DNA of 63,499 nucleotides, the filler included, from Methanobacteriota archaeon (GTDB taxonomy: Archaea > JACRDV01): assembly GCA_024860865.1 (NCBI GenBank). It is 8 parts of 8 records of this genome, joined end to end, with 100 filler letters (N's around TTAATTAATTAA, not from the genome) between each part and the next. Parts side by side here need not be neighbours in the genome. Positions count along the whole stretch, not along the records: positions 1 to 15,028 come from JACRDV010000125.1; 7 more parts are not named here. One strand, 5' to 3'. Shown one piece after another: positions 5,538 through 56,389 of the stretch (the stretch's first letter is position 1; each line of letters opens with the position of its first letter). A program made the position numbers and the translations under genes. A model generated the notes under the pieces. That model saw only the letters and a list, made by a program, of their open reading frames with translations. It was not told where the DNA came from and searched no databases.

Positions 5538-7177
5538 CTAGCTTGCCGCTGCTCTAACAAATCCATAGAACAATGGCGCTGGTTTTCCAGGTCGTGACTT
5601 GAATTCTGGGTGAAATTGGCTCCCCATCAAAAACTTGTGTCCCGGCAATTCAATAATTTCCATTAGTCGGTCATCTGGACTGGTGCCTGAGAATATAACG
5701 TTATGTTTTTCGAACTCCTTAATATACTCCGGGTTAATTTCAAAACGGTGGCGGTGCCTCTCATAAACTAGCTCTTGTTTGTACAGTTCATAAGCTAAGG
5801 TTCCCCTTTTGATTTTCGCTGGATAAGCCCCTAATCTCATTGTTCCTCCAAGTTCCCTGATTTGTTTCTGTTCTGGAAGTATGTCAATAACTGGGTGAGG
5901 TGTTTTTGGATCGAGCTCAGTTGAATTGGCTCCATTTAACCCCAACATATTTCTAGCAATTTCTACAGCTGCGAGTTGCATGCCAAAACAAATTCCTAAG
6001 TACGGAACATTATGTTCACGAGAATATTTAGCTGCTAAAATTTTTCCCTCTGTACCTCTAACGCCAAAACCAGGCCCTATTAAAATGCCCTGAGCTGTTT
6101 TTAGCAACTCAATATTTTTCGGGTCGATTTCAAGTTGTTCAGCTTCAACCCATTTTATTCTAACTCTGCAACCAACCTCAGCTCCGGCATGTTTGAGTGC
6201 TTCAAGAATACTTATATAAGAGTCAGCTAAGGCTGTATATTTTCCAACAAATGCAATTTCAATTTCTTTCCTTGCTTTATCCATTTTATTTACAAAATTT
6301 TCTAAATCCGAAAGATCTCTTTTCTGTGAGGTAAGAGTTAATTTTTCTAGGATCGCATCTCCAACTCTTTCCTTTTCGAGAATTAGCGGGACTTTATAGA
6401 TATTATCGGTATCGGGCGCAGAGACAACAGCTCTCTCCTCAACATTACAAAAGAGGCTAATTTTTGCCTTAGCGCCTCTAGTCAATTTTTCCTTTGCCCG
6501 GCAGATAACTACATCGGGCTGAATACCGATTGCTCTAAGCTCTTTTACACTGTGTTGAGTGGGTTTTGTTTTCTGTTCACCGACTACATCTAATACAGGC
6601 ACTAAAGTTACGTGAACAAAAGCAACATTTTTGGGCCCGTCTTCAAGCCGCATTTGGCGCACAGCTTCAAGAAATGGCATGCTTTCAATGTCACCGACAG
6701 TGCCCCCAATCTCTACTAAAACTACATCCACATTTGATTTCTCAGCAACCTCTCTAATCTGGTGCTTAATCTCATCAGTTAAGTGCGGAACAATTTGAAC
6801 AGTTTGCCCTAGATAGTTACCGCGTCGTTCCTTTTCGATTACTACCTTGTAAACTTTTCCTGTTGTTATATTGTGGGCTCTAGTTAGATTAACATCAAGA
6901 AAGCGTTCATAATGCCCTACATCTAGGTCAATCTCTCCGCCATCATCTGTTACAAAAACCTCTCCATGTTGAAAGGGATTCATAGTACCTGCATCAACGT
7001 TTAAGTTTACCCTTAGCTTTTCGCTAATATGGGTCTATTTTGATGACGGTTACCATGAGGCCTCTCGATTGGAGAATTTTTCCGATGGATGCGGTAGTGA
7101 TTCCTATAGGCCCAACTAATTGGTTTGCCTAGACCACTCATCACACCACCGGTAACAAAAATGTATTTAACCGCCTT
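5538..7177 (-). CDS. pyrG: CTP synthase, predicted spliced: exons ~7177-7125, 7105-7029, 7006-5538 (start codon uncertain)
   Basis: Joined exons read [23 protein letters not shown]...[21 protein letters not shown]; glutaminase motifs GICFG and HPE intact. Confidence 0.95.
7007..7028 (-). other. Putative 22-nt BHB mRNA intron 2 in pyrG
   Basis: ACCC-AUA-UUAGC-GAAAA-GCUAA-GGGU-AAA; canonical cuts restore D-P-Y-L-N. Confidence 0.88.
7106..7124 (-). other. Putative 19-nt BHB mRNA intron 1 in pyrG
   Basis: AGGC-AAA-CCAA-UUAG-UUGG-GCCU-AUA; canonical cuts restore G-K-G. Confidence 0.88.
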
Positions 7178-7285
7178 GATTCCCTCCTAACGCCGCAATG
7201 TTTAGCAATTACTTTTCTTAAATACTTTTACTTTTAATAATACTTTGGCTTTTAGCTAGCTTCTTCTTTTGCGCTTTTTTGCTAC

Positions 7286-7405
7286 TTATGAAAATCCTGA
7301 TTCGCTGTGTATACAGTTAGCGCATATCTCCTCTCTTGGAACAGGCTCAAATTCTTTACAGCTATCCCTTAATCCAACTATCTTATCAAATTTCTTGCAC
7401 TTCAT
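7286..7405 (-). CDS. Possible 39-aa Cys-rich small protein
   Basis: MKCKKFDK...SCKEFEP...ICANCIHS after a G-rich SD-like sequence. Confidence 0.4.
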   Translation of the reverse strand: MKCKKFDKIVGLRDSCKEFEPVPREEICANCIHSESGFS

Positions 7406-7850
7406 CAAATCCCCCCTTTATAAGTAATTTTACTTCAACTAAAGGATTAAATAATTTCTAAAGTTTTTGCGTTTTATGCTAAGTATTTTTGCTCTTAGAT
7501 TTGAAGCAAATGCTGTTTTTAATATGCTCCCCAAAAAAATAAAAACTAAAACGAAAACAGCTTTCCCTTTAAATAGTGAAGTTTTAGGAAATGATTGTTA
7601 TGCTTTGCAATGTGCTCTTTAAGTTGTTGAAGCAATTTCAATATTAAATTTAGGTCTAAATTATTTAAGTTACTCCAACTTCATTGTTTTCAATGGATAC
7701 CAAAAGTTTTAAACATTTTAAATCCTCAGTTTGGAGCTTTATTTTGGTTTATTGAAGTTTCGAGAAATACTCGTCATTATTGCTCAAAAGTTTTAATAAT
7801 GTGATGGCGAAAAATACACTCCTTGCTCTATATTTGTTCCTAAAAAAGGT

Positions 7851-9840: not shown

Positions 9841-12132
9841 TCATTCTACTGTTACAGATTTCGCGAGGTGCCGGGGTTTATCAGGATCTAATCCTCGCGC
9901 TGTGGAAACATAATATGCTACTAACTGAAGTGGAGCAACATAAGGAATTGGCGATGAAATTTCATCAACTTCAGGCATTTTAATTACATCATCAACTAAT
10001 TTAGCAATTTTTTCATCTTTTTCACTTGCTAATGCAATTACTTTTGCTCCTCGAGCTTTCACTTCTTCAATATTTCCAATCATTTTATCATAATTATCTC
10101 CAGGAGGAATTACAACAATTACTGGCACTCCTTTCTCAATTAAAGCCAAGGGACCATGTTTAAGCTCGCCACCTGGATAGCATTCAGAATGGATGTAAGA
10201 AATTTCTTTAAATTTCAATGCCCCTTCAGAAGCAGTTGCAAAGCTAATTCCACGCCCCAAAAAGTAAACATCTTGCACATCTTTTAGTTCTTCAGCTAAC
10301 TCCATAATTTTAGTTTCTTGAGAATCGATTACTTTGTGAACAATATCAGGCATTCTTTCCAATTGTTTGAGCAATTCTTTGATCTTATACTTAGGCAAAG
10401 TTTTTCTGATTTTTGCAAGGTAAACTGCTATCAAAAATAGGTCAATTAATTGAACAGCAAATGTTTTAGTAGCAGCTACTCCAATCTCAGGTCCTGCATG
10501 GGTGTAGCAAACGCAATCGCTTTCTCTGGTTATTGAGCTTCCAACTACATTTGTTATTGCTAAAATCTTCGCTCCTTTTTCTTTTGCTGCTCGAATTGCT
10601 GCTAGCGTATCTGCAGTTTCACCAGATTGGCTAATTGCCAAAACTAAAGAATTTTCATCAAGAGTTGGAACTGCAGCTTCTTTAAACTCTGAAGAAATTA
10701 TAACATCTACAGATAATTTTGCTAATTTTGCAAAAGCATACTTGGCTGCTAGAGCAGCATGGTAAGAGGTCCCGCAAGCAATAACATAAATTTTTTTATC
10801 CGTATTCAAAAATTCGATAAAATCTTTCAATTCATCTTCTCGAACTCTTAGAGTTTCTCTGATCGCAAATGGTTGCTCATGTATCTCCTTCAGCATAAAG
10901 TGAGCATACCCAGCTTTTTCTGCCATTTCTGGGGCCCATCTAACAGTTTCAATCTTTTTCTTTACAACTTCTCCCGTTAGAAAATTTTTTATAACAACAC
11001 CAGTGGATGTGAGTATCCCAAGTTCTCCATCATTTAGGATAATAACTTTGTTTGTTTCTTTAAGGAATGCAGGTATATCGGATGCCGCAAAAGTCTCGTT
11101 ATTACCGATACCGATTACTAATGGGCTTTCTTTTCTAACAACTATGAGTTTATCCGGTTCTTTTGCATTTATTATCGCCATTGCATATGATCCTTTGAGT
11201 TGATGGCAGGCTTTTACTACTGATGTTTCAAAATCAAATCCTTCTCTATTGAATTTCTCGATTAAATGGGGTATTACCTCAGTGTCTGTCTCTGATCTAA
11301 ATACATGTCCTTCTTTAATTAATTCCTCTTTGAGCTCTATGTAATTTTGAATTATACCATTGTGAGCCACTACGATTTGATTTTCACAATCAGTATGAGG
11401 ATGTGCGTTGATTTTAGTTGGTGCACCGTGTGTTGCCCACCTCGAATTATGAGAAATAATACCGTTGGCTATAAAGTTCTCATAATTTGGAACCTCTAAA
11501 TCATATACGTACTCTGTATTGTTTTCTATTTTTGTGTTGGATAATAGTCTTTGATAAACTATAGGATCACGAACGTACCGTTCTGAAACATCACTCAATT
11601 TCGATTTCTCTTTAACAAAAGTGAATTGGCTGAATATAAGCCTGTCTTCTTTCCGTATGTCTTTTACTTCCTTTTCTATTATCTTCCCGTTTCCATCTAT
11701 AACAAATAATCTATGTCTCTCTGTGCAAATGATTTCAGCAGAAGAAGTTTTTATTTTATGTAAATTTTTTGGGGCTTTATGTTTGAAGCAAATAGCTTTA
11801 GCTTTTACAAATTTTGATTTTTTGAGATCGTATGATAAAACGAAACATTCTTCATTAAGACTCGAAATTTTTGCTGTACTACCATCTGCTAGTTGAACAA
11901 GTGTATCTGGATGTAAACAATGTCCAATGCCTGCGTTACCAGGAAGGTCATCTAGATTTAGCCTTTGGTGAACTTCTTCAATTTTTCCCATGTCCTTCTT
12001 AATGTATATCTGTTTATTATCTATAGTTGTAATACCCACTGAATCATATCCACGATATGCTAATCTGCGCAACGCTTCGTGTATAACATAGGCACACTTC
12101 CTTGTAGATATACACCCGAATATACCGCACAT
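9841..12132 (-). CDS. glmS: Glutamine-fructose-6-phosphate transaminase with intein; start at MCGIFG
   Basis: CGIFG, RGYDS, GH/SRWATHG, SQSGETADT, HLAKSVTVE. Confidence 0.96.
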   Translation of the reverse strand: MCGIFGCISTRKCAYVIHEALRRLAYRGYDSVGITTIDNKQIYIKKDMGKIEEVHQRLNLDDLPGNAGIGHCLHPDTLVQLADGSTAKISSLNEECFVLSYDLKKSKFVKAKAICFKHKAPKNLHKIKTSSAEIICTERHRLFVIDGNGKIIEKEVKDIRKEDRLIFSQFTFVKEKSKLSDVSERYVRDPIVYQRLLSNTKIENNTEYVYDLEVPNYENFIANGIISHNSRWATHGAPTKINAHPHTDCENQIVVAHNGIIQNYIELKEELIKEGHVFRSETDTEVIPHLIEKFNREGFDFETSVVKACHQLKGSYAMAIINAKEPDKLIVVRKESPLVIGIGNNETFAASDIPAFLKETNKVIILNDGELGILTSTGVVIKNFLTGEVVKKKIETVRWAPEMAEKAGYAHFMLKEIHEQPFAIRETLRVREDELKDFIEFLNTDKKIYVIACGTSYHAALAAKYAFAKLAKLSVDVIISSEFKEAAVPTLDENSLVLAISQSGETADTLAAIRAAKEKGAKILAITNVVGSSITRESDCVCYTHAGPEIGVAATKTFAVQLIDLFLIAVYLAKIRKTLPKYKIKELLKQLERMPDIVHKVIDSQETKIMELAEELKDVQDVYFLGRGISFATASEGALKFKEISYIHSECYPGGELKHGPLALIEKGVPVIVVIPPGDNYDKMIGNIEEVKARGAKVIALASEKDEKIAKLVDDVIKMPEVDEISSPIPYVAPLQLVAYYVSTARGLDPDKPRHLAKSVTVE
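11446..11919 (-). mobile_element. Mini-intein (158 aa, no homing endonuclease) in glmS
   Basis: Starts CLHPDTLV, ends VYDLEV..ENFIANGIISHN followed by Ser; splits the GH-S-RWATHG motif. Confidence 0.93.
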
Positions 12133-12728
12133 AAAAAACACGTTTAACAAGTTTTTATTTTTTAAGAGCATTTCGCTTTTCATAGTTAATTTTGGCTTGC
12201 TTAGTACATCTTTCTACTTCTTTTTTAATGTTAAATTTTAAACATTTTCCCAATTTTGCCCTCAAAAATTGCCCATCTGAGTGCCAGAAATTAAATAATT
12301 CCACTTAAATTTTCGATTTTAAACTGAGAAATTTATCATCCCCGATGATTATGCAGTAAAATGATAGATGCTGAATTGTTATCTATCTATAATAAGGAAA
12401 ATTCAAGAAGTACTTGACCATGCAAAACGCTCCGGGCTGAGCGCGGATAACTCTCATTTTCTTTAAACTCAAGCTTCTTTCAGCTCGCGTTCCAATATTT
12501 GGCTAACTCCTAGTTTGCCACATCTGCCACTCGATTTATAAGCCTTTCTTTGCCACATTTGCCACATTCTGGATTCTTCGGTGCTTGAAATTGCAAAATC
12601 TAGTTTCCACGATTTCCGCTTCAAATGTGGACGATGGGATTCGAACCCTCGTGCTCAAGGATTAAGGCTGGAAAAGGACGAAGAAAATCCTAGAGGGAAA
12701 TAGGGCCTCCTAAGTTTGAATTGAGCTG

Positions 12729-12823: not shown

Positions 12824-12838
12824 TAATTAAGGATTTGA

Positions 12839-12965
12839 TGGCGCGGGCGTGATTTTCACCTTAGTAAATTATCTCTACTAAAGATTTGAACACGCGACAT
12901 CAGGATCTTCAGTCCCGCGCTCTCCATAGCCAGGCAAACATGCCTTCAGGCTGAGCTACCGCGCC
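12839..12965 (-). tRNA. tRNA-Phe(GAA) with D-loop intron (12926-12946) and T-loop intron (12853-12884)
   Basis: Both inserts form full BHB motifs; removing them gives a standard cloverleaf. Confidence 0.92.
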
Positions 12966-13014
12966 ACCAATGAAAAATTAGCGCACCTATCTAAAAAATT
13001 TTCCGCTAAAATAG

Positions 13015-13126
13015 TGGGCCCGCAGGGAATCGAACCCTGGATCTCTGCCTTTCTTAAGGCTTAAGAAACAAGATCTTTTTCCTTAAATCTTGTAAGGGCA
13101 GCGTCTTACCATTGGACTACGGGCCC
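13015..13126 (-). tRNA. tRNA-Val(TAC) with 40-nt intron at 37/38 (13051-13090)
   Basis: GGGCCCG acceptor stem, CTGCC/GGCAG anticodon stem, CTTA/TAAG central helix. Confidence 0.92.
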
Positions 13127-14507: not shown

Positions 14508-14589
14508 AAAAGCACTGGAAAGTTTGAATTTATTTCAAAATAAAATACATATAAATACTAACCCAATCTATTCGCAAATGAAAGTTTAG

Positions 14590-14707
14590 TGGACCCGTCG
14601 GGATTTGAACCCGAGGCCTTTTGTGGAGCTCAATGCCCATTCACATGCCAAGCGAACGCTATTGGCCGGAACTTTTATATTCCGTCTTCCAGCTGAGCTA
14701 CGGGCCC
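14590..14707 (-). tRNA. tRNA-Ala(GGC) with D-arm intron (14661-14685) and intron at ~43/44 (14620-14639)
   Basis: GGGCCCG/CGGGTCC acceptor stem; both inserts are BHB-like hairpins whose removal restores the cloverleaf. Confidence 0.88.
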
Positions 14708-15028: not shown

Positions 15029-15128
15029 NNNNNNNNNNNNNNNNNNNNNNNNNNNNNNNNNNNNNNNNNNNNTTAATTAATTAANNNNNNNNNNNNNNNN
15101 NNNNNNNNNNNNNNNNNNNNNNNNNNNN
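15029..15128. other. Artificial contig spacer
   Basis: N-run/TTAATTAATTAA/N-run. Confidence 0.98.
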
Positions 15129-18730: not shown

Positions 18731-18830
18731 NNNNNNNNNNNNNNNNNNNNNNNNNNNNNNNNNNNNNNNNNNNNTTAATTAATTAANNNNNNNNNNNNNN
18801 NNNNNNNNNNNNNNNNNNNNNNNNNNNNNN
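18731..18830. other. Artificial contig spacer
   Basis: N-run/TTAATTAATTAA/N-run. Confidence 0.98.
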
Positions 18831-24801: not shown

Positions 24802-26250
24802 ATGAAATTTGTTGGTGGTACCCCTTTGGCTACTATTCAAACATGCGCACAAGCCGTTGCAAAAGTAATAAAGGATTTTATTATAAAAGGGTCTCCAATA
24901 AGAATAATTAGCCACTATGATGCTGACGGCCTTACATCAGCAGGTATTCTTGGAAAAGCACTGATGCGCGCTGGCGCTCGTTTTCATTTCTCAATAGTAG
25001 AACAATTAGAAAAAGAGCATATTGAAAGTTTTGCTCATGGGAAATATGAGCTATTTGTTTTTACCGACCTAGGTAGCGGTCAATTAGATATAATCCAAGA
25101 AAAAATATTGCCGAAAGCGAATGTCGTTGTAATTGATCACCACCGACCTTTAGATATTAACCACGAACGATTAGCTCACATTAATCCACATTTTTTTGGT
25201 TTTGATGGATCCAAAGAGGCAAGCGGTTCTAGCATGAGTTATCTTTGTGCTACTGCACTCGATTCAGCAAATAAAGATTTGGCAGATCTTGCAATTGTTG
25301 GAGCAGTTGGTGACCGCCAAGATTCAAGCGGAGCATTGCTTGGTTTAAATGCTCAAGTATTGAAGGAAGGAGAGGAAGCCAATGCGGTAAAAGCTGAGAA
25401 GGATTTAAGATTATTTGGTCGCCATACTCATCCTCTTCACCTGGCCTTAAGCTACACTATAGAACCCTATATCCCAGAAATTACTGGAAATGAATCAAAA
25501 TGTGTACAATTTTTAACCGATCTAAAAATTTTATCTGCAGATAAATGGAATCGCCGACTAATCGATTTAAATCAAGAGGAAAAACAACGATTGATCACTA
25601 GCCTAATTCTAAAAATGATCGAAGGCGGTTCTCCATCTGAACTTGCTGAAGGGATTATAGGTGAAGTTTATACTCTATTAAAAGAAGAAGAAAATTCAGA
25701 GTTGCGTGATGCAAAAAGTTTCGCAACATTGTTAAATGCTTGCGGAAGAAATCATAGCCCGAGTGTTGGATTGGCAATATGTTTAGGCGATAGAACTGAT
25801 GTAGTAGTTGAAGCTAAAAAGACTTTAAAAAATCACAGAATGAGACTCTCGAAGAGTCTAAATTGGGTATACCAAAATTCAGAGGCCATCCATAAGCTTC
25901 AATATGTCCAATATTTCCATGGTGAAAATCACATTGAAGAAAACCTAGTGGGCACAGTAACCTCAATGGCTATGAGCTCAAAAATATTAAATTCATATAA
26001 GCCTGTCGTAGCCTTTGCTTTTAGAGAGGATAAAAAAGTTAAGGTCTCAGCTAGGGCAACTAGAAAATTAGTTGAGAAAGGACTAAACTTAGCTGAGGCA
26101 CTTCATAGTGCAGCTCATGCTGTGGGCGGAATAGGAGGCGGACACGATGTGGCTGCTGGTGCAACTATCCCAATTGGCTCAGAAAATCAGTTCATTAAAC
26201 TTGTAGAAGAAAGCATTAAAAATCAGATGAGCGGCCATGGTTCTAGCTAA
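24802..26250 (+). CDS. RecJ-like DHH nuclease (GAN/Cdc45-like)
   Basis: SHYDADG, DLGSG, IDHH, GGGHDVAAGA; rps15-recJ-pcc1-rps3ae context. Confidence 0.92.
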   Translation: MKFVGGTPLATIQTCAQAVAKVIKDFIIKGSPIRIISHYDADGLTSAGILGKALMRAGARFHFSIVEQLEKEHIESFAHGKYELFVFTDLGSGQLDIIQEKILPKANVVVIDHHRPLDINHERLAHINPHFFGFDGSKEASGSSMSYLCATALDSANKDLADLAIVGAVGDRQDSSGALLGLNAQVLKEGEEANAVKAEKDLRLFGRHTHPLHLALSYTIEPYIPEITGNESKCVQFLTDLKILSADKWNRRLIDLNQEEKQRLITSLILKMIEGGSPSELAEGIIGEVYTLLKEEENSELRDAKSFATLLNACGRNHSPSVGLAICLGDRTDVVVEAKKTLKNHRMRLSKSLNWVYQNSEAIHKLQYVQYFHGENHIEENLVGTVTSMAMSSKILNSYKPVVAFAFREDKKVKVSARATRKLVEKGLNLAEALHSAAHAVGGIGGGHDVAAGATIPIGSENQFIKLVEESIKNQMSGHGSS

Positions 26251-26506
26251 GGCATATATTCAGTGTAACTATAAACCTGGAGCTAAAGTCAATGCAATCG
26301 CAGCTGCTTTAGAAGTAGATAATAAAGCTGCTCCGCCGACTATTAAAGTAAAAAGTTATTCTGAAAAAAATATACTTTATAATGAGATCGAAACTATTGA
26401 TAAATTAGAGACATTTTTATCAACTATTGATGATTTATTGTTCTCGATATTAATTGCTGAAAGTTCACTCTCGTTGGAGGATGAAGGTGGAGGAACAAAG
26501 GTTTAA
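26237..26506 (+). CDS. pcc1: KEOPS subunit Pcc1
   Basis: ALEVDN, STIDDLL; conserved position after recJ. Confidence 0.8.
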   Translation: MVLAKAYIQCNYKPGAKVNAIAAALEVDNKAAPPTIKVKSYSEKNILYNEIETIDKLETFLSTIDDLLFSILIAESSLSLEDEGGGTKV

Positions 26507-28067
26507 TTTAAAAGCTAGCTTTACATTCAGCGATAATGTTGAAAAAGCAAGCCAAATTCTAAAAGAATTTTTTGTACGAGCAAATAAAGAGATCCTTCTT
26601 AAAGGCGTCCCTAAAGGTAAGGAAGAAGAAGCTGCAAAAATTAAAGCCTGGGAGCTAAAAGGAAACCAACTTGAAGTTAACATAGAATCTGGAAGATATG
26701 TTAGAGCACATGTGGCTGTATTAAGGATTGGGAAAATATTAGCTGAAACTCTTGGTAAAAATTATAAAGTGGGGCTTCGCAGCATCAATGTAAAAGATTT
26801 TTTTATAAACTTATCAACAACTCAAGCACTTCCAAAAGAAATTGTCGAAAGAGTTAAATCTCTTCCTAAAATCCAAGATGTTAAAGCTGAAGCGAACATT
26901 CTCAACCTCTTGCTTAAGCCCTTAACAGAAAGTGAGCTTAAGAGGAATATCCCCGATAGAATTATCAGTTTGGCTGAAAAAATTATAGAAGATGGCCTGA
27001 AGAAGCCGACCATTATTCCTAAAATGCCGATTTTAAAGAAAAGCCCTCCCAAGCCAATAAAATTCTCAGAAGATCCTTTGAAAGTAGCTCTTCAACTTGG
27101 TTGGATAAAAGAGTTCCCGGGCAGAGGACAGTACATTTACACAGCCCCATATGCAAAATTGTTCGAAATAATTAAAGAAACATTGCTCAAAGAAATCGCT
27201 CGTAAATTGGGTTTTCAACCTTTTTTACTGCCAAAATTAATTCCGCTTGAAGTAATGAAGAGAATGCCCGGCTATCTAGATGAGATACCAGAGGGCATGT
27301 ACTACGTATGCCCACCACCCAGAGATCCAGGGGCTTTCACTCGTTTTAAGGATCAATTTAAGATTACAAAAGATATTCCTAAAAAAGAATTGAAAAAGGT
27401 AATTAAAGATCCGGAATATGTTTTAGCACCAGCTCAGTGCGAACCATTCTGGCAGTTTTATAGCCATGAAATTGTTCGAGTTGAAGAACTTCCATTTAAA
27501 CTCTATGACTCTTCAGGTTGGACATACAGATGGGAAGGCGGTGGAGTTGAAGGGCTTGTACGCCTTCAAGAGTTTATGCGCATCGAATTAACATATCTCG
27601 GCACACCTGAGCAGGTTGTTGATATCAGAGACAGTATAATGAACGAATGCGTGCGTGTAGCCGACAAAATACTTGGCCTAGAATGGAAAATAACTGCTGC
27701 AACACCATTTTACATGAAAGGCGGCGAAATCGCCGTTGATATAACTGACAGCAAGAACGTGGCTGCTTATGATATTGAAATATTTTTACCATATCGCGGG
27801 CCTAGGGAAAGCGCCGAGTGGCTAGAAATTGCTGGCTGCTTTGTACACAAAACTAAGTTCGTTGATAGCTTCAAAATTCGCGAGATTAAAGGGAGAGATA
27901 TATGGACAGGATGCACTGGGCTTGGCATTTCAAGGTGGGTTGCAGCATTTCTCGCAGAGCATGGATTTAATTCTAAAGACTGGCCAAAAGAAATACGCGA
28001 ACAAGCTGAGCCTTTACCAGAAGTTCCTAAAACCTTAGAGTGGCCGGCGGTTAAGAAAAAAGAGTAA
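26481..28067 (+). CDS. serS: Seryl-tRNA synthetase, methanogen type
   Basis: ESGRYVRAH N-domain, APAQCEPF, YRWEGGG, EFMRIE, WTGCTGLG; GGAGG before ATG 26481. Confidence 0.92.
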   Translation: MKVEEQRFNLKASFTFSDNVEKASQILKEFFVRANKEILLKGVPKGKEEEAAKIKAWELKGNQLEVNIESGRYVRAHVAVLRIGKILAETLGKNYKVGLRSINVKDFFINLSTTQALPKEIVERVKSLPKIQDVKAEANILNLLLKPLTESELKRNIPDRIISLAEKIIEDGLKKPTIIPKMPILKKSPPKPIKFSEDPLKVALQLGWIKEFPGRGQYIYTAPYAKLFEIIKETLLKEIARKLGFQPFLLPKLIPLEVMKRMPGYLDEIPEGMYYVCPPPRDPGAFTRFKDQFKITKDIPKKELKKVIKDPEYVLAPAQCEPFWQFYSHEIVRVEELPFKLYDSSGWTYRWEGGGVEGLVRLQEFMRIELTYLGTPEQVVDIRDSIMNECVRVADKILGLEWKITAATPFYMKGGEIAVDITDSKNVAAYDIEIFLPYRGPRESAEWLEIAGCFVHKTKFVDSFKIREIKGRDIWTGCTGLGISRWVAAFLAEHGFNSKDWPKEIREQAEPLPEVPKTLEWPAVKKKE

Positions 28068-31063: not shown

Positions 31064-31163
31064 NNNNNNNNNNNNNNNNNNNNNNNNNNNNNNNNNNNNN
31101 NNNNNNNTTAATTAATTAANNNNNNNNNNNNNNNNNNNNNNNNNNNNNNNNNNNNNNNNNNNN
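31064..31163. other. Artificial contig spacer
   Basis: N-run/TTAATTAATTAA/N-run. Confidence 0.98.
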
Positions 31164-33964: not shown

Positions 33965-34064
33965 NNNNNNNNNNNNNNNNNNNNNNNNNNNNNNNNNNNN
34001 NNNNNNNNTTAATTAATTAANNNNNNNNNNNNNNNNNNNNNNNNNNNNNNNNNNNNNNNNNNNN
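33965..34064. other. Artificial contig spacer
   Basis: N-run/TTAATTAATTAA/N-run. Confidence 0.98.
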
Positions 34065-42993: not shown

Positions 42994-43093
42994 NNNNNNN
43001 NNNNNNNNNNNNNNNNNNNNNNNNNNNNNNNNNNNNNTTAATTAATTAANNNNNNNNNNNNNNNNNNNNNNNNNNNNNNNNNNNNNNNNNNNN
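42994..43093. other. Artificial contig spacer
   Basis: N-run/TTAATTAATTAA/N-run. Confidence 0.98.
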
Positions 43094-53532: not shown

Positions 53533-53632
53533 NNNNNNNNNNNNNNNNNNNNNNNNNNNNNNNNNNNNNNNNNNNNTTAATTAATTAANNNNNNNNNNNN
53601 NNNNNNNNNNNNNNNNNNNNNNNNNNNNNNNN
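53533..53632. other. Artificial contig spacer
   Basis: N-run/TTAATTAATTAA/N-run. Confidence 0.98.
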
Positions 53633-56289: not shown

Positions 56290-56389
56290 NNNNNNNNNNN
56301 NNNNNNNNNNNNNNNNNNNNNNNNNNNNNNNNNTTAATTAATTAANNNNNNNNNNNNNNNNNNNNNNNNNNNNNNNNNNNNNNNNNNNN
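56290..56389. other. Artificial contig spacer
   Basis: N-run/TTAATTAATTAA/N-run. Confidence 0.98.

Follow-up and report, generated by a model that had tools for sequence, protein, structure and literature searches.

The window analysed here, a stretch of 63,499 nucleotides (nt) from a Methanobacteriota archaeon (NCBI GenBank assembly GCA_024860865.1), carries pyrG, the gene for CTP synthase, on the minus strand of its first contig piece. It is composed of eight contigs, taken from a draft bin and separated by seven identical linkers (N44, TTAATTAATTAA, N44, with a six-frame stop in the middle), so genes beside the linkers are cut and gene order across them is meaningless. Gene finding presents pyrG as an open reading frame (ORF) of 481 amino acids (aa), 6983–5538, which starts with MNPFQHGE, and a 43-aa ORF upstream in a different frame (7144–7013). 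Comparison with homologues by eye shows that the N-terminus is present but split; a first piece extends to 7125, a second piece covers 7104–7029, and LNVDAGTM follows from 7004. The pieces are separated by inserts of 19 and 22 nt (Table 1), and the sum of 41 nt is 2 modulo 3, matching the frame offset between the 481-aa and the 43-aa ORFs. Judged from the sequence, pyrG is very probably a three-exon gene with two archaeal pre-mRNA introns of the cbf5 type, each bounded by a motif of the bulge–helix–bulge (BHB) type and removed by splicing.

When the three exons are joined by their coordinates, the coding sequence (CDS) has 1593 nt and encodes 530 aa with 0 internal stops; no further frameshift or stop is found across its length. 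The spliced protein is identical to a CTP synthase from Hadarchaeales (P0002) in 354 of 533 aligned columns (about 66%) and in 51 of the first 60. The assignment as pyrG rests on this 66% identity to CTP synthases and on Pfam domains. The preliminary description of the locus had proposed a search for the 14-residue peptide across the first junction; the string is found verbatim in the homologues P0002, P0003 and P0015. A search of 5.8 billion protein clusters gave 8000 scored hits, and among the best 120, which were listed, only one (P0001, 99% identity) exceeds 66%. This closest match is likewise called as an N-terminally truncated 481-aa ORF. The public protein collection contains this pyrG only in a truncated form that lacks the P-loop, which is a gap in practical annotation. 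In a scan of genome contigs for pyrG relatives, the best identity among the matches listed is 63%. Further copies of intron 1 or intron 2 with up to three mismatches were not found in the window.

Table 1. Features of the window, and metagenomic contigs matching the pyrG locus; positions count along the whole window
Feature	Positions	Strand	Remarks
pyrG (CTP synthase)	5538–7171	minus	Within the first contig piece (1–15028)
pyrG exon 1	7125–7171	minus	15 residues and bases AA of the P-loop Lys codon; from homologue comparison
Intron 1, 19 nt	7106–7124	minus	From fold, homology-set boundaries and register test; single copy in the window
Intron 1 parts, in order	7106–7124	minus	1 bulge base; hairpin CCAA/UUGG (loop UUAG); central strand GCCU; 2 bulge bases
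hBHBh' motif 1, whole	7096–7138	minus	Minimum-energy structure
pyrG exon 2, 77-nt micro-exon	7029–7105	minus	Third base of Lys, 25 residues, first base of Tyr
Intron 2, 22 nt	7007–7028	minus	From fold, boundary scan and register test; single copy in the window
pyrG exon 3	5538–7006	minus	Last two Tyr bases, LNVDAGT, the called 481-aa ORF, stop
tRNA-Val(UAC)	13015–13126	minus	41-nt intron at 37/38; central helix CUUA/UAAG; bulges CAA and AAA; geometry as in the pyrG motifs
tRNA-Phe(GAA)	12838–12966	minus	Mini-introns at non-canonical positions: 21 nt in the D-loop (12926–12946), 32 nt in the T-loop (12853–12884)
tRNA-Gly	Same contig piece		Intron of about 17–19 nt
tRNA-like gene, about 120 nt	14587–14707	minus	Acceptor and T arms are good; extra sequence of about 45 bases or more; tRNA by Rfam, 39 bits
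Linkers	15029–15128, 18731–18830, 31064–31163, 33965–34064, 42994–43093, 53533–53632, 56290–56389		Joins between contigs
Contig X1 record 7	6650–7400		Spans both inserts, 0 gaps
Contig X2 record 9	5539–7160		Spans both inserts, 0 gaps
Contig X4 record 29	6659–7160		Spans both inserts, 0 gaps
Contig X3 record 23			Spans insert 2

The first insert and its borders (minus strand, 7133–7102) read UCU, AGGC, AAA, CCAA, UUAG, UUGG, GCCU, AUA and GGA, letter for letter as in the preliminary description, which had placed a strict 19-nt BHB in the GLGKG P-loop. On re-reading, the central helix AGGC/GCCU and the inner hairpin CCAA/UUGG, both 4 base pairs (bp), are entirely Watson–Crick, as had been claimed; in the former, exon 1 pairs with the 3' end of the insert. 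The two bulges, AAA and AUA, have 3 nt each and lie on opposite strands. Folding of 7095–7140, the check that had been suggested, recovers the bulge–helix–bulge with its flanking helices (hBHBh') as the unconstrained ViennaRNA minimum-energy structure, and the fold of 7085–7145 is the same. The outer exon–exon helix, drawn earlier as UCU/GGA with three pairs including one G-U, is borne out and extends to 2+6 pairs in the minimum-energy fold. Intron 2 has a central helix ACCC/GGGU (4 bp), bulges AUA and AAA, an outer helix of two pairs and an inner hairpin UUAGC/GCUAA (5 bp) with the loop GAAAA; its minimum-energy fold is likewise a BHB. Both pyrG motifs have hBHBh' geometry, that is, 3-nt bulges on opposite strands, a 4-bp helix between them and flanking helices of at least 2 bp. 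EndA, the tRNA splicing endonuclease, cleaves 3-nt bulges behind their second base. In motif 1, the cuts would fall at AA/A and AU/A, within the Lys codon of the P-loop, which ligation would rebuild as AAA; removal of intron 2 would rebuild the Tyr codon of DPYLN. In both motifs, the predicted cuts coincide with the deletions that are optimal by homology, and the stop-free 530-aa CTP synthase is restored.

The pyrG motifs resemble introns of tRNA genes on the same contig. In the canonical tRNA-type arrangement, in which the anticodon pairs with the intron, the bulge lies 3' of the central-helix strand, and each bulge of pyrG motif 1 is located there. In tRNA-Val(UAC), UAAG, at the intron's 3' end, pairs with CUUA of the loop (positions 32–35), the bulges are CAA and AAA, and cutting behind the second base of the bulge produces the 37/38 junction. 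By this intron and by the textbook arrangement, the geometry of the pyrG motifs is that of the canonical tRNA-type BHB. At least four tRNA genes on the pyrG contig piece need intron removal (Table 1). Neither ARAGORN nor Rfam at the gathering score detected one of these genes, tRNA-Phe(GAA); in each of its two introns, the central helix has 4 bp, the bulges have 3 nt and there is one inner hairpin. By the indirect evidence of the tRNA genes, the organism must run BHB splicing, including at non-canonical positions. Gene content marks the host as archaeal: the window encodes ribosomal proteins S3Ae and S15/S13, an archaeal ThrRS editing domain that stands alone, and a SerRS of the methanogen type. 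The named organisms closest to it are only distantly related (66% identity to Hadarchaeales for pyrG and 51% to Hydrothermarchaeales for a RecJ-like protein).

The boundaries of the inserts were also set by a scan that was blind to structure. Every deletion starting between 7140 and 7096 with a length of 7–39 nt was made, and the translation was scored against the Hadarchaeales CTP synthase. Only 7124–7106 and the slide-equivalent 7123–7105 reached the optimum, so homology alone picks the cut within the Lys codon that had been proposed from the motif. For insert 2, the optimum is 7028–7007 together with three slide-equivalents. The register of the motifs was assessed by keeping the exons fixed and shuffling each insert 200,000 times, a pass being a BHB that excises exactly the insert. 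Intron 1 gave 141 passes, with 13 at the observed stringency; intron 2 gave 9 and 0, respectively. The coincidence of register is thus about 1e-3 for insert 1 and about 1e-4 for insert 2, and about 2.5e-7 jointly when 2 and 4 equivalent registers are allowed. The earlier argument that a chance indel or a sequencing error would hardly supply such a motif is upheld by the 141 in 200,000 and by the independent assemblies that carry the insert.

It is the register that sets the pyrG motif apart from chance, and not stability or the number of motifs alone. The fold of intron 2 has z-scores of −3.41 and −3.02. With a loose definition of a compact BHB, the window contains 52 motifs, compared with 36 ± 5 in 20 shuffles; with an all-Watson–Crick definition it contains 6, compared with 3.1 ± 1.9 in 40 shuffles. 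The six are the two pyrG inserts, one tRNA-Phe intron and three that look like chance. A loose scan of the window for other BHB introns that restore a frame returned 137 candidates, nearly all in intact ORFs, and among those compared by eye with the ORF table none besides intron 2 was convincing.

The pyrG locus is present in DNA contigs of four sequencing runs from three studies, the samples being groundwater or unspecified metagenomes. In the contigs of these runs, none joins across either insert to give an uninterrupted form. One contig (X2) represents a strain about 2% diverged, for which 32 of the 34 differences are listed. Thirty of these are exonic, with 26 at the third codon position, 3 at the first and 1 at the second, and they change 3 residues in 530. 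The remaining two (7020 and 7021) are intronic, and the 5-nt loop of intron 2 contains both. The lone difference in the micro-exon (7057) is a silent third position in the spliced frame, where the unspliced ORF would have it at a first position. The spliced frame is under strong purifying selection, which also covers the micro-exon and the stretch of exon 3 that precedes the called ATG. In another contig (X4), all 12 differences are placed outside 7095–7160, which leaves intron 1 and its helices identical in this contig. Taken together, the independent assemblies and the purifying selection indicate that pyrG is functional, and neither an artefact nor a pseudogene.

Presence or absence of the inserts in relatives, a comparison that the preliminary description had called for, was examined in the two nearest named phyla with P0002 as the query. 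In the first phylum, matches were obtained in 34 of 66 genomes, and 32 were full length; in the second, 35 of 38 matched, 29 at full length. No full-length match in either phylum contains an internal stop. As pyrG is uninterrupted in these 32 and 29 genomes, the inserts are specific to the lineage of the host. In one genome (G090), an apparent loss of the N-terminus of pyrG proved to be a contig end.

We propose that the primary transcript would fold locally into two hBHBh' motifs, around codon 16 and codon 42. EndA would recognise both by their shape and cut after the second base of each bulge, and an RtcB-type ligase would join the exons. Removal of the 19 and 22 nt would yield an mRNA for the normal 530-aa enzyme with the P-loop Lys and the DPYLN Tyr codons rebuilt. 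From the unspliced RNA, only a short peptide would be expected, lacking every CTP synthase motif past the P-loop. Because the introns interrupt conserved codons, splicing would be obligatory for any pyrG enzyme. The geometry, the exact frame restoration, the independent assemblies, the purifying selection and the intron architecture shared with the tRNA genes of the contig are observed, and from them we infer cleavage, ligation and the enzymes involved.

A decaying pseudogene, broken by two unrelated small insertions whose hairpin shape is incidental, would be consistent with gene callers reporting only the truncated 481-aa ORF, with an exon 1 that has no canonical start codon, and with the chance occurrence of about 3 to 36 compact BHB-like motifs per window, depending on stringency. 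We consider it very unlikely, as strains about 2% apart keep both inserts with changes mainly at third positions, both inserts pass the exact-register test independently, and the 1593 nt have acquired no additional lesion. Slightly less probable still is translational recoding, in which the ribosome would bypass, or shift frame over, the 19-nt and 22-nt stretches with the hairpins as stimulators. The known case is the bypass of phage T4 gene 60, where a short non-coding gap with a hairpin lies within an ORF and one continuous protein is made; it needs matched take-off and landing codons and requires neither an exon–intron helix nor symmetric bulges. Each pyrG insert does have a stable small hairpin directly past the last exon codon, and cbf5 introns have been confused with translational frameshifting by others, as mentioned in a part of Yokobori et al. 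(PMC2738675). Unlike T4 gene 60, the pyrG inserts lack matched codons: at insert 1, AAA stands against AUA before GGA, and at insert 2, UAU has no match before the resumed frame. A simple +1 shift would leave six extra residues in the Walker-type GLGKG loop, and a bypass has no need of an exon–intron central helix and 3-nt bulges in exact register, which are seen twice.

An artefact of sequencing or assembly, or a chimeric join in the binned contig, comes to mind since the window is made of eight draft-bin contigs joined by linkers. Its probability is negligible: pyrG is located well inside the first piece, contigs from three studies cover both inserts with 0 gaps, and the independently called protein on a 2789-nt contig has the same truncation. 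It is also conceivable, if improbable, that the motifs are real EndA sites with a regulatory and not a constitutive role, where cleavage would mostly destroy or gate the mRNA and pyrG output would depend on EndA and ligase capacity. The initial 130 nt of the CDS contain both motifs; judged from this position, splicing would have to compete with ribosomes trailing the polymerase, and the eukaryotic TSEN cuts some mRNAs for decay, as stated in a section of PMC10485636. The purifying selection on the enzyme means, however, that a productive spliced form must be made.

Several observations weigh against splicing of the pyrG transcript. The fold of intron 1 is of modest stability, with z = −1.55 and 12 of 200 shuffles as stable for 7095–7140, and z = −0.91 and 38 of 200 for 7085–7145. 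An all-Watson–Crick strict 19-nt BHB is also found at 26098–26116 on the plus strand, which is the coding strand of an intact RecJ-like ORF; equally strict motifs thus arise by chance, and the motif alone is insufficient proof of cutting. The only relative in which intron 1 can be compared is the strain about 2% diverged, where it is invariant and shows no covariation. All runs that contain the pyrG locus (5538–7400) are DNA, with no RNA run among them. Neither endA nor rtcB was found among the 50 Pfam-scanned ORFs of the window. The frame of exon 1 is open back only to a TAG at 7189–7187, with no ATG, GTG or TTG before KYIF.

As to the last point, the in-frame codons after the TAG are GAG GGA ATC AAG GCG GTT AAA TAC. 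GTT (7171–7169) occupies the place of the ATG of the homologues, and ATC at 7180 is only 2 nt beyond GGAGG. Two alternative 61-nt pieces are present in X2 across 7131–7191. To see whether a third intron could bring in a start codon, 7450–7150 was scanned; the one candidate, of 216 nt, was rejected as weak, with two G-U pairs in its central helix and 2-bp flanks. Directly upstream of pyrG is a 40-aa Cys-rich ORF (7286–7408, minus strand). The weak 216-nt BHB-like pairing, by which the start codons of this ORF would be linked to pyrG exon 1, was judged to be chance.

The proposed mechanism is of the class reportedly described by Watanabe in 2002 for the cbf5 pre-mRNA intron of Desulfurococcales and Sulfolobales. 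Like that intron, the pyrG inserts are short, BHB-bounded and inside an ORF, and the gene is mis-annotated by gene callers; the proposed pathway, removal by the tRNA splicing endonuclease followed by ligation, is also the same, being confirmed for cbf5 and inferred for pyrG. The two are nevertheless different introns of one mechanism class, the host gene here being pyrG and not a cbf5 orthologue. pyrG encodes a metabolic enzyme and not an RNA-modification enzyme, and it has two introns around a 77-nt micro-exon where cbf5 has one. The pyrG motifs are strict hBHBh', whereas those of cbf5 are often relaxed, which a portion of Yokobori et al. 2009 (PMC2738675) ties to the heterotetrameric crenarchaeal enzyme. 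The hosts of the cbf5 introns are Crenarchaeota with this enzyme, whereas the pyrG host is nearest to Hadarchaeales and Hydrothermarchaeales. HVO_1309 of Haloferax volcanii likewise has a BHB in an archaeal mRNA; the pyrG motifs interrupt conserved codons. The non-canonical mini-introns of archaeal tRNAs have an identical architecture and are of the same size class (21 and 32 nt in tRNA-Phe), but in pyrG the host RNA is a messenger, and codons place a further constraint on the exon strands of the helices.

In the relevant portion of PMC2738675, archaeal pre-mRNA splicing was confirmed at that time for no gene besides cbf5, and archaeal tRNA introns are given sizes of 11–175 nt. A passage of PMC7714728 names one mRNA (cbf5) and adds HVO_1309; cutting of this euryarchaeal mRNA BHB by the splicing endonuclease is described there and in part of the review PMC10485636, which expects that further spliced archaeal messengers are probably still to be found. 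Within these parts of the three papers, no archaeal messengers other than cbf5 and HVO_1309 are named as splicing substrates of the tRNA endonuclease. In Sulfolobus, a survey of circular RNAs gave no supported new mRNA introns, and in a full-text literature search no publication was found that connects CTP synthase to BHB introns. We are confident that the mechanism class is the known one, of cbf5 type, and that the gene, the lineage, the presence of two introns in one gene and the strict motif are new. If pyrG is spliced as proposed, two obligatory BHB introns in a housekeeping metabolic gene outside Crenarchaeota would widen the range of genes and lineages, and it would be the first multi-intron case found in our literature search. 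The motifs are small (46 and 56 nt), which makes a direct in vitro test easy. We regard it as doubtful, though conceivable, that in this poorly sampled lineage mini-introns of the tRNA type have passed from tRNA genes to protein genes with housekeeping roles, two or more to a gene. In that event, the tRNA splicing machinery would be needed for the output of CTP synthase and other essential enzymes, pyrG would represent a multi-exon protein gene with a micro-exon in a prokaryote, spliced without a spliceosome, and many 'truncated' ORFs in archaeal bins would be unrecognised spliced genes.

Three further observations were made elsewhere in the window. Excision of the motif at 26098–26116 would break the RecJ-like frame; the motif is either due to chance or a site that needs protection from the endonuclease. 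The SerRS gene (26454–28067, plus strand) belongs to the rare methanogen type, in which a tRNA_bind_4 N-domain is combined with a class II core, and may help to place the lineage. glmS (9841–12183, minus strand, 780 aa) contains a mini-intein inside the amidotransferase domain, with Pfam Intein_splicing at residues 97–246.
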